Source: Octopus vulgaris (Eukaryota). From it: a stretch of 64,000 nt of DNA. This document shows positions 4,198 to 49,170 of this stretch, in pieces (position 1 is the first letter of the stretch; each line of letters starts with the position of its first letter). Where the stretch lies: NCBI GenBank assembly GCA_951406725.2, contig OX597833.1, positions 2,108,001 to 2,172,000 of the forward strand, given 5' to 3'. The notes below the pieces were generated by a model that was not told where the DNA came from, searched no databases, and saw only the letters and a program-made list of their open reading frames with translations. The position numbers and the translations under genes were made by a program.

Positions 4198-4697
4198 TTG
4201 TGTGTCTGTGTGTCCACGGAACACAGGCTTTACATTATCCGAAATGTCCACTCTCCATAAAAGAGTTTAGACGGTGTAATTATGACACAGCTAGGGTTAT
4301 TTGACTGCTATTTCTAGGAGATCGATTGACCACGTTCAGGCCCCTTCCTTGTTTCCATGTAACGGCATGGGAGAGGGGGGGAGGCGGTGCGGAAGCCGAA
4401 TGTTGACCCATTTATTTATTTATTTATTTCTGTATTTTTATAATTCATATTTGTTTTTATTATTTAGATTTATTTATTTGTTTATTTATTTTGCATTTTT
4501 TTTTTTCAATAATGTTGAGCAATAACGGAGTTCGGCTTGCAAACGACGTGGTTCCAAGTTCGGTCCCACTGCGCGTTACCTTAGGCACATGGACTTTTAC
4601 TAAAGCCCCGGGATGGCAAATAACTTGTAATCGAATTTACCACACGCGGAAGTCAGTCCCCCCGCCTCTCTCTCTCTCTCCTCCTGTATATATAACT

Positions 4698-15230: not shown

Positions 15231-15272
<42 letters not shown>

Positions 15273-15542
15273 ATAAGAGTAAATAATTTCTATAAAGGTT
15301 TTTAAAAAACCACAATTATTTACTGGTAGAATTCGGTATGTAAATATAGCCGATTACCGGCAGGAACTTCTGTAAAGTTCAGTATATATATTGTATATAA
15401 GAAAAAGGGACAAGCAACAGGTTGCTTGACCGCATACCGAAAAAATAGAAATAGCAGTCAAGAATGCTTATTTCTATCAAAGTGGGACTCCGGGCACGAC
15501 AAACCCTGTAATTCACATGTAATAGCATATGTTTTGCATATG

Positions 15543-17627: not shown

Positions 17628-18140
17628 CGGAATGGTCATTTTGCCAGTTTAGCCAATAAAAACACACGCACTATGTATTTGGTGTTATTTTGCTTCAGTG
17701 TTATTTATTTTTTAACATTAATCTTAATCTTATTTCGGCCAGAGTTCTTTCGTCACTGGCAAAATGACCATTCCGAAATATAACAATATCTGTTTCAACA
17801 CACGACTTCACATAAAAATCTTGCACAACAAATATATAAACGTATATATATATATATACATACAAGTATGTTCAGGACTTAGTGCTTGCTTTTTCCATTA
17901 GTATGAGTATTACATTTATGTTTTACGTATTTATCGCTGAGGAGGGGAAAATTCTTATGAATGAACTCTGAAATTGGACCCAATATGGTAATAACGGAAT
18001 TTTTTAGAAATTTCTTTCGGCTTGTTTCGAGACGCATAAATTATAATGGTTATTGACAATTTTGTCTATTTTCGGCATATTTGGCATTAGAATTTTTCTT
18101 TTGCCCTTATTTTATAAGTAATATATATATACATATATGT

Positions 18141-31646: not shown

Positions 31647-31922
31647 TAGATATAGATATATATATATATGGGTGTGTGTGATTGTGTATAGAAGAATATA
31701 TTAATAAAAGGAATTCCAACCTTGTCTGATTTTCACGTTTTATTTACAATCTTATAATGATATAATATAAGATAATATATTAAAATAAAATAATATAATA
31801 GAATGTTAAATGTTCATTCTGATTGAACTAGTACTTTCATGCCTTAAATTATGCAATCTTCAGGTTCATGTAGTAGTGGTGACAGTCATGCTTCACAATT
31901 TTTGACTATATATATATATACT

Positions 31923-43779: not shown

Positions 43780-44221
<442 letters not shown>

Positions 44222-45463
44222 CCATTTTTGTAAAGGGTCAAGGCCTGAAATTTGCTGCTAGTCGATTACATCCACCCGAGTGTTTCACTGGTGCTTCATT
44301 TATCGACCCCGGAAGGTTAAAAAAAGAACGAAGTCGACCTCAGCGACATCTAAACTCAGAACGTAAAGACGGACGGAATAATGCATAGCATTTTGTCCGG
44401 CATGCTAAACATTCTAAACATTCTGCCGATTTGAAATCTTGGCACAAAGCCAGCAATTTCGGGGCAGGGAGTAAGTCGACTACATGGAGCCCAATATTCA
44501 ACTGGTACTTGTCTTTTCGACCCTGAAAGTATGTAAAGCGAAGTCGACCCCGGCGATATTTCAACTCAGAGCGAAAAGCAAGAAGAAATGTCGTTTAGCT
44601 TTCGTCCCTTCTGCTGATGACTCTGTCAGCTTTCCTTCTTACAATAATGATAATAATTCTTTCTAGTATAGGCACAAGAAATGGCAGCTTTGTTTTTAAA
44701 GGAGGACTATTTATTCTGTATCGGTTACGAAAATACGAAAAACAAATTGACCTAGGCGGAATTTGAACACAGAAATGATGCGATACCGGTAAGCATTTTG
44801 CCGAACACGCTAACTATTTTACCAGCTCGCCGCCATAGAAGGTCAATAATAACAACAACATAAATAAATAAATAGATAGAAAGATAAACAAATAAAGCAA
44901 ACCGTGGCTTAAGATATATCGATCAGTCTCACAGGGAATATGAGATACCCGGCCAAACAGATGACAGACAGACAGGTAGGCGGGCAGACAGGCTAAACGC
45001 TGAAATAAATAATTGATATATTTGTATAGAGACGGGCCGAGCAGATGAGAGCAATGAAAGCTTAGCCAGGTATAAGCGATCCGTCTGTAGAATACGATTA
45101 AAAATCAGTTTATTATATACATCTGATAATAAAGTATGTTTGTATCGACTATTTCCTTACACACACACACACGCATATGTATGTATGTATGTGTGTATGT
45201 GTGTATGTATGTATGTATGTATGTATGTATGTATGTATGTGTGTATGTATGTGTGTATTTATATATGCGTGTGTGTGCGTGTGTGTGTGTGTGTGTGTGT
45301 AAACAAATAAATATGTATATGGCTGTATGGTAAGAAGCTCGCTTCCCAATCACATGGTTCCGGGTTCGGTCCCACTGCATAGCACCTTGGGCTAGTTTCC
45401 TAAGCCTTGTGACTAGGTGAATAGATATATGATTGAGGGCAAGAAGACCATTGTGTGTGTGTG

Positions 45464-45504
<41 letters not shown>

Positions 45505-45818
45505 GTGTGTGTTATTGTGTCTTCGTTCGATCCCCACCGCCGCTTCACAACTGGTGCTGGTGTGTTTGCATCACCTTAACTTAGCGTTAGGCAAAAGAGA
45601 CCGATAGAAAAAGTGCCAGGCATAGTTATATATATATATATATATATATAGCAACGAATTGCCTCACCACACACCGAATTTAGAAATAGCAGTCAAAGAG
45701 ATATAGCTATTCCTTCTACTAAAAGGGAGATCTCAGTAAAAACACAGCACTTGAAAGGCAAACACAGACAGGTAAGAGAGAATGAAATGACGGCAATCTA
45801 TCATACAATTTTAAGTCA

Positions 45819-45910
45819 CCTACGGACGTACGTTTCGAAATCAAGTTTTAGGAAAGCATAAGAATTAGAAAATTCTACCTTACACAAACTTCCTTTCTCA
45901 TCAGCGTAGG
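45819..45910 (-). ncRNA. Type I hammerhead ribozyme, canonical core, extended stem II
   Basis: Minus strand: CCUACG CUGAUGA GAAA..(long hairpin)..UUUC GAAAC GUAC GUC CGUAGG; stem I 6 bp, GUC cleavage triplet. Confidence 0.88.
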
Positions 45911-46401
45911 ATACTACAATTATGAATAATTGTATATTAAATTTTGAGATACTAGAAGGCATCATCTCAACTCAGTGTCAGAGCGAGCCAAAGCATTACC
46001 AGTACCACGAAATTCAAAGTGTGAATGAAAGTTTGTGTCACCAGCCCCTTTCCACCCGCGTGTAGCCAAGACAAGATGCTGTGGTCGTTTACTGGGATAA
46101 AATATGGTTATCAGTAACAATACAGGGTGAAATTAATTAATTTGGAATAATTATCAATTACACCAAGTAGATTTCGGCATGTAAAAGCCTCATTCGAGGA
46201 AAATTTAAGTAATACTAAGCAATTAAGGGTTTAGCAACGAATTGCCTCACCACACACCGAATTTAGAAATAGCAGTCAAAGAGTTATAGCTATTCCTTCT
46301 ACTAAAAGGGAGATCTCAGTAAAAACACAGCACTTGAAAGGCAAACACAGACAGGTAAGAGAGAATGAAATGACGGCAATCTATCATACAATTTTAAGTC
46401 A

Positions 46402-46493
46402 CCTACGGACGTACGTTTCGAAATCAAGTTTTAGGAAAGCATTAGAATTAGAAAATTCTACCTTACCCAAACTTCTTTTCTCATCGGCGCAGG
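46402..46493 (-). ncRNA. Second copy of the hammerhead (CCGAUGA core, G-U in stem I)
   Basis: Minus strand: CCUGCG CCGAUGA GAAA..UUUC GAAACGUACGUC CGUAGG. Confidence 0.7.
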
Positions 46494-46819
46494 ATACTAC
46501 AATTATGAATAATTGTATATTAAATTTTGAGATACTAGAAGGCATCATCTCAACTCAGTGTCAGAGCGAGCCAAAGCATTACCAGTACCACGAAATTCAA
46601 AGTGTGAATGAAAGTTTGTGTCAAAGTTTTAGTAGAAGGAATAGCTATAACTCTTTGACTGCTATTTCTAAATTCGGTGTGTGGTGAGGCAATTCGTTGC
46701 TAAACCCTTAATTGCTTAGTATTACTTAAATTTTCCTCGAATGAGACTTTTACATGTCGAAATCTACTTGGTGTAATTGATAATTATTCCAAATTAATTA
46801 ATTTCACCCTGTATTGTTA

Positions 46820-46872
<53 letters not shown>

Positions 46873-46873
46873 G

Positions 46874-46911
<38 letters not shown>

Positions 46912-47175
46912 CTTTATCTGTGGATTTAGGCTACTATTAGTTTCATAAAATCAGCGGTAGTCTTAATTCGCAAATACAGAGATTATATATCCACCTTAAA
47001 CGGTTTGACCACTCTTTTGATCCTTCCGCACACATACACACACACACACGGACGCGCGCGCGCGCACATACATACATATATATAAGTGCAGGGGAGCAAT
47101 TCATTCAACTAAAGCACCTCAAAGCTGTGCCCCAGCATGGCCGTAATCTAAAGACTGAAACAAGTAAAAGATAGA

Positions 47176-47209
<34 letters not shown>

Positions 47210-47237
47210 TTTATTCAAAAGCAGCAGAAAATTCAAC

Positions 47238-47284
47238 AAAACCTGTTACTCTGAGTTTCACGTTCCCGTTCATCGGACAGTTTT
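47238..47284 (-). ncRNA. Hammerhead-like motif, family H4 (CCGAUGA core)
   Basis: AAAACUGU CCGAUGA ACG-GGAA-CGU GAA ACUC-A-GAGU A ACAG-G-UUUU. Confidence 0.55.
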
Positions 47285-47465
47285 TTGCTAATATATAATA
47301 TATAATATAAAGTTACAAATTGAGATTGGGGTTGTAAGTGCAACCCTCCATGGGATAACATATATCCAATATACTGCTAATACATAAATGTTAAGAACTG
47401 CGATGCAGTTAATTCATTTACTGTATTATATGGACAAAGGTAAAATGCTTTACCACAAATAAATA

Positions 47466-47614
47466 ATACAAAATAAGAAGATGGAGAAACTCATCTTAAT
47501 CAATGATCAACTACCAGATAATACCCAGTAGTGGTTTAATAAATTATGCGATTGGGTATTATCTGGTAGTTGATCATTGATTAAGATGTGTTTCTCCATT
47601 TTCTTATTTTGTAT
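47466..47614. repeat. 62-bp-arm inverted repeat in a (TA)n-flanked element (relative at ~13060-13240)
   Basis: Arms 47466-47527 and 47553-47614, two mismatches. Confidence 0.9.
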
Positions 47615-47908
47615 AATATATAATATATATATATTATGCGTGTGTGTATGCGTATGTATGTGTATGCATGCGCACGCGCGCGCACATTCCACATATTCGC
47701 ATAAACAATATATACCCGACAAGCAGACAGGATGGCCGATAACAAAACAATTACGAACCAAACACTACCCAATTATTCATCAAAGCCAATCCCCCCCGCG
47801 AAATAAGAACACATACACATGAAAATACGTACACATCCATTAAACCTCTCGTATATAGATACATACGTACCTACCTACGTACATACATACATACAAATAT
47901 ACATACAT

Positions 47909-48290
47909 AGGCGCAGGAGTGGCTGTGTGGTAAGTAGCTTGCTAACCAACCACATGGTTCCGGGTTCAGTCCCACTGCGTGGCACCTTGGGCAAGTGTCT
48001 TCTGCTATAATGGATTTGGTAGACGGAAACTGAAAGAAGCCTGTCGTATATATGTATATATATATGTATGTGTGTGTTTGTGTGTCTGTGTTTGTCCCCC
48101 TAGCATTGCTTGACAACCGATGCTGGTGTGTTTACGTCCCCGTCACCTAGCGGTTCGGCAAAAGAGAACGATAGAATAAGTACTGGGCTTACAAAAAGAA
48201 TAAGTCCCGGGGTCGATTTGCTCGACTAAAGGCGGTGCTCCAGCATGGCCACAGTCAAATGACTGAAACAAGTAAAAGAGACAGTAAAAA
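47909..48290 (+). mobile_element. SINE family A with small internal deletion
   Basis: Head and tail intact; GCCTCGGGCC..GTGAG segment missing. Confidence 0.88.
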
Positions 48291-48429
48291 GTATACATAC
48301 ATACATACGCACATACATACATACATACATACATACAAACATACATACATACAAACATACATACATACACACATACATACATGCATACATACATCATACA
48401 TACATACATACATACGTACATACATACAT

Positions 48430-48472
<43 letters not shown>

Positions 48473-49170
48473 TACATACAGACATACATACATATATGCT
48501 TGCATACAGGCAAACGTACTTACATACATACGTCAGCCTTTTCGCTTAAAAACAAAATGGAAGCCAAATGGCGTGTTGAGATGCCGGTTTAAGAAGTCTA
48601 TGTAGAGAGATTGGAAGTTAAAGGTAAGGTCAATGCCAGTGAGAAAGGTGACCAATACTTCGCTCTTGCTCTTCCATTCCTGATTCTTTTTGTTCTGTGA
48701 TTTTTTTGTTTACTTCTTCCTGTCTTCCTTCCTTTCCTCCTTTCTTTTGCTTCTCTTGTTAGTAGTCTAGCTACAGCCTGTATGTGCGTACGTATAAACA
48801 TAATATATGTGTGTGTGTGTGTGTCTGTGTGTGAGTGCGTGTGTATGTATGTATTTATATATATACATATACTAATGTACGCGTGTTTCTGTAAGGACGG
48901 ATGTACGTATATATGTGGTTATATGTGTATACGTCTATACATACACACACATACATACATATATGCATACATATATAGATATATAGATAGATACATATAT
49001 ATATATATATATATACAGATATGTATACATATATGTATATATATATATGCATATATATATACATATACATATGTATATATATATATGTATACATATATAT
49101 ATATATATATATGATTATTTATATATGTATATATTGATGTATGTATATATACGTATGTATATATATATAA

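Follow-up and report, generated by a model that had tools for sequence, protein, structure and literature searches.

Metazoan non-LTR retrozymes are described as non-coding elements with a GC content below 50%, built from tandem units that each carry a type I hammerhead ribozyme with a short palindromic stem III, dispersed as monomers to multimers and co-occurring with Penelope-like elements (PLEs) (PMC7229834; 10.64898/2026.07.22.740005). In all these respects they resemble the 583-nt element described here. PLEs have been proposed as the helper or the origin of retrozymes (PMC7229834; 10.64898/2026.07.22.740005), and a 2026 preprint by Li, Clavereau and Pollet argues for a PLE origin and reports that one of nine tested dimers cleaved (10.64898/2026.07.22.740005).

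Traits listed for PLEs include partial tandems, a 5' copy in inverted orientation and a tail confined to one end (PMC8557442). The Hydra clade, which combines these traits with canonical hammerheads and insertion into (TA)n (Craig et al. 2021, PMC8557442), is likewise similar to the present element. The same applies in part to the Poseidon element PAc of Anolis (Frangieh et al. 2024, PMC11167929). The purified Poseidon enzyme nicks both strands of AT-rich DNA and extends both. Within the RNA, two sites downstream of the hammerhead, one on either side of the genomic tail, serve as its reverse-transcription starts, and the RNA it uses is mostly uncleaved (PMC11167929). For cephalopods, an octopus repeat annotation reports recently active Penelope-like families, with no mention of ribozymes in its accessible text (PMC13282606), and the corresponding text of a squid genome paper counts 235 hammerheads but does not analyse them (PMC6962438). 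Neither an octopus retrozyme nor a U4C hammerhead core in PLEs was found described in the literature searched, which covered few subscription papers and did not include Repbase or Dfam.

Architecture of the locus

The window is a 64,000-nt stretch of the Octopus vulgaris genome (contig OX597833.1, positions 2,108,001 to 2,172,000). It contains a locus that is best read as a single two-armed insertion of a 583-nt unit, with the arms head-to-head, in (TA)n. Unit position u1 was set at window position 45650, and the ribozyme-sense RNA corresponds to the minus strand. Arm 1 (45650-46623, minus strand) spans 974 nt, or 1.67 tandem units, with a variable 5' end at 46623 and a short-type 3' end at 45650, about 20 nt inside the modal short end of the family. 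Three extra bases (46624-46626) join it to the inverted arm 2 (46627-46825, plus strand), which is 199 nt long and terminates at a long-type 3' end (u460). By sequence, the (TA)n target occupies 45628-45649 on the left and 46826-46859 on the right. An unrelated interspersed repeat flanks the element at a distance in two copies that are 86% alike (45320-45399 and 47920-47999).

A first-pass annotation had described a direct repeat, an inverted copy and (TA)n at both outer ends, and all three are borne out. The direct repeat (45650-46040 and 46233-46623) has 6 differences in 391 positions and a period of 583, and the inverted copy (46109-46307 and 46627-46825) has 2 differences in 199. The 68-bp "unique spacer" of that annotation is simply the portion of the unit that occurs once at this locus. 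Its description of the element as hammerhead-bounded has to be abandoned, as insertions terminate about 190 or about 295 nt beyond the predicted cut site in the downstream direction. The predicted cut-to-cut monomer of 583 nt (45825-46407, minus strand) folds more stably than its shuffled versions (z -4.7, 40 shuffles).

Predicted hammerhead ribozymes

Type I hammerheads were recognised by a CUGANGA plus GAAA core, an NUH site and three stems. The left copy (45819-45910, minus strand) is canonical and consists of stem I (45910-45905/45824-45819), the CUGAUGA core (45904-45898), a 61-nt stem II, GAAA and a palindromic stem III (ACGUACGU), with a predicted cut between 45825 and 45824. The right copy (46402-46493, minus strand) carries the core CCGAUGA, with U4C at 46486, and a G-U pair in stem I at 46490; its predicted cut falls between 46408 and 46407. 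The two predicted cleavage sites are thus 583 nt apart, as annotated. The annotation had assigned the same CUGAUGA core and CCUACG stem I to both direct repeats, which is correct for the left copy and incorrect for the right.

Stem covariation among genomic copies had been put forward as a check and was found. In an alignment of 63 of 86 distinct hammerhead regions (the 23 dropped were mostly near-identical to kept rows), 93.9% of cells are paired, compared with 26-49% in slid-alignment controls. Changes on both sides of a pair occur in 39 cells versus 11.9 in shuffles (0/500), a figure that counts sequences and represents perhaps 3-4 independent events. Two stem II pairs change from A-U to G-C in 13 and 15 rows, and a stem I pair from C-G to U-A in 5. 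Taken by itself, the count of covarying pairs did not reach significance against shuffles (70/500). Position 7 is free to vary, and no change is seen at G5, G8 or G12.

When the isolated ribozyme was folded without constraint, the core was mispaired (-22.1 kcal/mol, versus -19.9 kcal/mol with the core open). A duplex of the stem III palindromes of two copies was calculated at -9.8 kcal/mol, which would be compatible with action as a dimer; dimeric metazoan hammerheads pair between copies via the palindrome (PMC4209133). An Rfam search of 44000-48500 gave no hammerhead match at E<=5, probably because of the long stem II. The element with this predicted self-cleaving motif is real, and it is probably functional at the RNA level.

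Copy number and coding capacity

The element is multicopy. A 19-nt hammerhead-core pattern has 1,085 exact matches in the genome and none for its reversed control, so the pattern is not due to chance, and a 3'-module pattern has 1,473 exact matches (reversed control, 0). A search with the 583-nt unit returned 2,109 candidates; scoring of 40 candidate places yielded 44 full-length matches that are 96-100% identical. Identity among copies of the family ranges from about 74% to 99%, and copies are dispersed on many contigs. Part of the unit (shares 0.25-0.75) is also contained in 20 sequencing runs under six organism labels; none of them is on record as RNA, and the material available for them consisted of contigs. 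Contigs of seven presumed-RNA runs and of one run of unspecified kind cover the unit and carry no strand, end or circle information; a few begin or end near 45820-45824, one of them with an adapter-like end, and these ends are given no weight.

The longest ORF of the doubled unit has 49 aa, and no remnant of a PLE protein was seen in it (best E 0.15). The RT plus GIY-YIG ORF of an autonomous PLE is therefore absent from it. It consists of non-coding tandem units with one hammerhead each, ending in (TA)n rather than LTRs, and at sequence level it fits the definition of a non-LTR retrozyme (PMC7229834). The repeat is young and protein-free, its hammerhead is conserved and its 3' ends fall at two fixed sites; it is likely a new family of the known retrozyme class. 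Its unit of 583 nt exceeds the 170-400 nt reported for invertebrate retrozymes and lies within the 51-972 range of a 2026 survey. The 61-nt stem II and the frequent U4C core differ from metazoan retrozymes as described. Likewise, (TA)n targeting, inverted arms and paired fixed 3' ends are absent from the retrozyme descriptions as far as these could be consulted.

Insertion ends and target

All 65 insertions on one contig (C1) that contain the exact 3'-module pattern were analysed; 86 arms carry the pattern. The 3' ends fall at u550-569 in 52 arms (short type), at u450-479 in 32 (long type) and elsewhere in 2. This defines two fixed 3' sites about 105 nt apart, at about 190 and about 295 nt from the ribozyme. 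Flanks are TA-rich in 75/86 arms, and target-site duplications are unreadable inside (TA)n. Of 33 two-armed copies, 30 combine one long with one short end and 3 have an odd end; none (0/33) has two like ends. In the window, the "tail" between the two inferred reverse-transcription start sites corresponds to 46102-46212 on the minus strand, with the modal short end at 46212 and long ends at 46102-46120.

The 5' ends range widely, from u23 to positions past a whole unit, those of diverged copies being approximate because they were taken from local alignment. Among the 86 arms, 34 end before u165, one at u174 and 51 past the predicted cut site, and a single arm lies within 2 nt of that site. The first-pass annotation had proposed that an RNA released by self-cleavage is the form that is copied, a proposal that finds no support in this single end at the cut and in the 51 arms that read through it. 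A cluster of ten 5' ends at u174-197 was considered as possible cleavage ends and rejected, since most lie at a short palindrome and the base of stem II, away from the cut site.

This family combines the traits of PLE mobilisation, having a microsatellite target, 5'-truncated copies, partial tandems, an inverted 5' arm and a tail at a single end. The use of one site per arm matches the footprint of the purified Poseidon PLE, and by analogy we infer that the mechanism in the 583-nt family is the same. Poseidon PAc differs in being autonomous, in belonging to another clade and in having its start sites inside the ORF (PMC11167929). The broader proposal of the first-pass annotation, a non-autonomous hammerhead element copied by a PLE enzyme, is well supported by the multicopy, covarying and non-coding nature of the unit, its (TA)n target, its PLE-type ends and the two start sites.

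Sister families and motif A

Upstream of the modal short 3' end lies motif A, a short conserved box common to sister families (46264-46279, minus strand; also 45681-45696 and, on the plus strand, 46655-46670). A conserved 9-bp long-range stem (46173-46261, minus strand), in which 46253-46261 pairs with 46173-46181, encloses the short end at 46212. The layout of long-stem-II hammerhead, motif A, short end and ~100-nt tail recurs in units of 594, 616-644 and 490 nt. The long-range stem is kept in 17 of 24 representative 3' modules, which were chosen by these motifs; in the same set its changes are mostly wobble, with one both-side change. The pattern of motif A plus stem has 5,230 genome matches. 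For motif A in a looser variant, 15,617 exact matches came from across the genome, many of them located in old repeats of different types.

The relative at 15.3 kb noticed in the first-pass annotation is a 5'-truncated copy of the 616-644-nt sister family (15270-15518, minus strand; 250/257 identical). Its kinship is thus upheld. Its characterisation as a type lacking the ribozyme is not, as the sister family has its own long-stem-II hammerhead and the copy stops about 50 nt short of the cut site of that hammerhead.

At the gathering threshold, Rfam returned one tRNA-like match alone for 14 loci, and motif A has no curated family there. An interpretation of motif A as a splice acceptor was dropped, as AG is absent in the 583-nt family. 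Motif A was also seen within an old, diverged repeat at window 4290-4320 (minus strand), and in each unit of a ten-unit, 213-nt tandem array (G000:C1:18331143-18333076). In one Hydra family (L319-L322), a 3' UTR microsatellite 330-570 nt past the ORF stop holds a fixed relic of a motif-A element (4/4 copies). As proof of partnership this relic was rejected: it is an inverted-plus-direct passenger in a microsatellite, and the host family has its own hammerhead.

Candidate Penelope-like helpers

The genome holds intact Neptune-like ORFs of 784, 784 and 781 aa and Hydra-clade ORFs of 717-960 aa, the latter assigned by motifs; at least eight Hydra-type families are present. Hydra-clade assignment was based on DKT, RWK-like, CxCx5C and CxxC...CxH motifs together with a C-terminal endonuclease. 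In six ORFs, DKT and CxxC...CxH were each present in 6/6, CxCx5C in 5/6 and RW[K/R] in 4/6; a seventh Hydra-clade ORF carries all four motifs.

Ribozyme-to-(TA)n distances show two modes in the 583-nt, Hydra and Neptune families alike. Distances are 95/190, 45/195, 35/105, 50/205 and 37/105 for Hydra families and 70/110, 55/90 and 65/105 for Neptune families (samples of 6-37 each, in which overlapping loci may count twice). The spacing of the ends is about 105 nt in the 583-nt family, about 70-155 nt in Hydra and about 35-40 nt in Neptune families. Hydra ribozymes have C3-G8 cores, short palindromic or near-palindromic stems III and stems II of up to 87 nt, and Neptune ribozymes are of the U3-A8 minimal type. 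In spacing, ribozyme type and target, the 583-nt family resembles the Hydra elements of the Octopus genome more than its Neptune elements. Published PLE tails are 30-40 bp (PMC8557442), a length with which the start-site spacing of Poseidon PAc was equated (PMC11167929). The Hydra tails of 70-155 nt seen here are longer, and the use of tail length as a clade marker is based on this genome.

The suggested autonomous PLE with the same pLTR did not emerge among the ten autonomous 3' ends sampled (8 Hydra, 2 Neptune), which scored z -0.5 to 3.0 against the 3' region of the element. The 3' regions of sister families scored z 11 for one and 2.8 for another. Protein, family and motif searches, in which the top candidates were scored, found many PLE families and none ending in motif A. 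The element thus differs from the Hydra clade in having no ORF and no detectable sequence link to the sampled Hydra families. This missing pLTR homology lowers the case for derivation from a particular family, not for movement by a PLE. The helper is very probably a PLE, and a Hydra-clade PLE is a reasonably likely candidate.

Two junctions were considered as proof of co-mobilisation and rejected, as shared (TA)n targeting or local fold-back explains them. In L079 (959-2649), a family copy abuts, at its short 3' end, a Neptune RT/EN ORF that is 5'-truncated and free of stops; in L309, a 27-nt sister-family end is present on a Hydra copy.

Several young PLEs were observed alongside. A very young Hydra-clade PLE (L454-L457, e.g. 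G000:C1:57207000-57216999) has a 717-aa ORF in a unit of about 2.59 kb and forms full-length tandem and inverted arrays; every ribozyme sampled from it is U4C. Three young Neptune families (L101-L146, L217-L246) carry minimal hammerheads of the U3-A8 type, placed 55-110 nt before their 3' ends, and in one of them GCAA replaces GAAA. In the window, a hammerhead-like motif with an AT-rich tail behind it lies at 31820-31870 (minus strand). This sequence is also found after GIY-YIG remnants in L220 and L309, so a Neptune-like family probably has its 3' end here. A type I hammerhead-like motif with a CUGAGGA core and a 10-nt stem III loop region lies at 17927-17992 (plus strand) and has a relative in L132.

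Arrays, template and the U4C core

Arrays of the 583-nt family comprise 2-6 units, the longest being 3,693 nt (about 6.3 units). Units differ by 0.68% within an insertion (342/50,032 compared sites, from non-independent pairs) and by 5.7% between insertions, which argues that each insertion derives from one lineage. Of the 342 differences within insertions, 62 affect positions at which both alleles are frequent in the family, three of them in the window copy, and three long arrays (L100, L075, L070) repeat their variants every 2 or 3 units, imperfectly. Differing family-wide alleles inside one insertion argue that a single monomer circle is not the usual template. Overall, the unit variants favour multimeric templates (dimer or trimer) over one monomer circle, although DNA-level duplication, RT error, CpG decay at the U4 site or later mutation could also be their source.

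U4C was found in 57/109 units from 70 loci, 29 of which are the best matches to the window unit, with older copies left out. Among 61 C1 insertions picked by core pattern, 16 are U4C, 38 canonical and 7 unclassified. Arms of at least 1,400 nt occur in 4/16 U4C and 0/38 canonical insertions (Fisher p 0.006), and arms of at least 800 nt in 8/16 and 7/38 (p 0.04); neither test is independent, because few lineages account for the U4C copies. U4C is present in each of the four long arrays that were sampled, and the canonical 594-nt sister with its five-unit array is a counter-example to this link. In Hydra families, U4C is present in 19/19 ribozymes of the young family that forms full-length tandem arrays and in 8/9 of another young family, and in none of two further families (0/28 and 0/26). 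As a natural variant, U4C is reported to have lower activity in vitro yet to allow viroid infectivity (PMC3088659). Its occurrence in about half the units, in the long arrays and in two young Hydra families suggests that slow ribozymes may supply multimeric templates, with shared lineage as a confounder.

Proposed route and alternatives

With reasonable but incomplete confidence, the window element is explained as an insertion of a 583-nt non-LTR retrozyme copied in trans by a PLE RT/GIY-YIG enzyme, likely of the Hydra clade. An RNA longer than the unit would be transcribed, and its hammerhead would cut slowly, or as a dimer through the palindrome. The enzyme would bind the structured module downstream of the hammerhead and nick both strands of a (TA)n tract. 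cDNA synthesis would begin inside the RNA, with one strand using the short site and the other strand the long one. The two cDNAs would then join head-to-head, as in the window copy, or a single arm would be completed alone. The template would likely be uncleaved or multimeric RNA, linear or circular, rather than a single monomer circle.

A helper from another PLE clade (Neptune, Naiad, Poseidon or Nematis) acting on the same element is unlikely. Three Neptune families are intact and young and also target (TA)n, one Neptune RT ORF is linked to an end of the element in L079, and Naiads prefer (TA)n (PMC8557442). However, the Neptune spacing of about 35-40 nt does not fit the ~105 nt of the element, Neptune ribozymes are minimal U3-A8 types, sequence likeness to the sampled Neptune elements is absent, and cephalopod Naiads are termed old remnants (PMC8557442). 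The classical retrozyme route, in which hammerheads cut out the 583-nt monomer, which is circularised and yields tandems by rolling-circle reverse transcription, would account for arrays of up to about 6.3 units, for the low divergence within insertions (0.68% versus 5.7%) and for the structured monomer, and retrozyme circles have been demonstrated in mussel, coral and axolotl (PMC7229834). It is nevertheless improbable here: the window units differ at three sites at which both alleles are common in the family, and the 2- or 3-unit variant periods better fit dimer or trimer templates or DNA duplication.

The existence of tandem arrays could also indicate that the unit is a satellite at the DNA level, or a pLTR left over from an autonomous PLE, and is immobile alone. 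A further possibility is movement by an R4/Dong-type LINE, since Dong-R4 LINEs are among the most recently active in the octopus annotation (PMC13282606). We regard this group of explanations as very improbable. Individual inversions and fixed paired ends mark the copies, which are scattered over many contigs. None of those sampled leads upstream into an ORF of its own orientation. A poly(A) tail is lacking, and the rule of one long and one short end is a PLE trait.

An extension of the proposed PLE-mediated route is decidedly speculative. U4C may have been selected repeatedly, in Hydra-clade elements and in their 583-nt parasite, as slower cutting leaves longer-than-unit RNA, and the motif-A/long-stem module of the 490-640-nt sisters would be the loading signal of the enzyme.

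Mobilisation of animal retrozymes by PLEs has so far been proposed from shared ribozymes, co-occurrence and pLTR homology. The retrozyme class itself was already known; here, the insertions of the 583-nt family themselves bear the footprint of an enzyme with two start sites, and young, intact candidate helpers reside in the same genome. The family provides a small, defined RNA for in vitro study of the role of the hammerhead in PLE transposition. If the selection of U4C outlined above were true, the ribozyme would determine how long arrays become and how well copies succeed, and would not delimit the unit that transposes.
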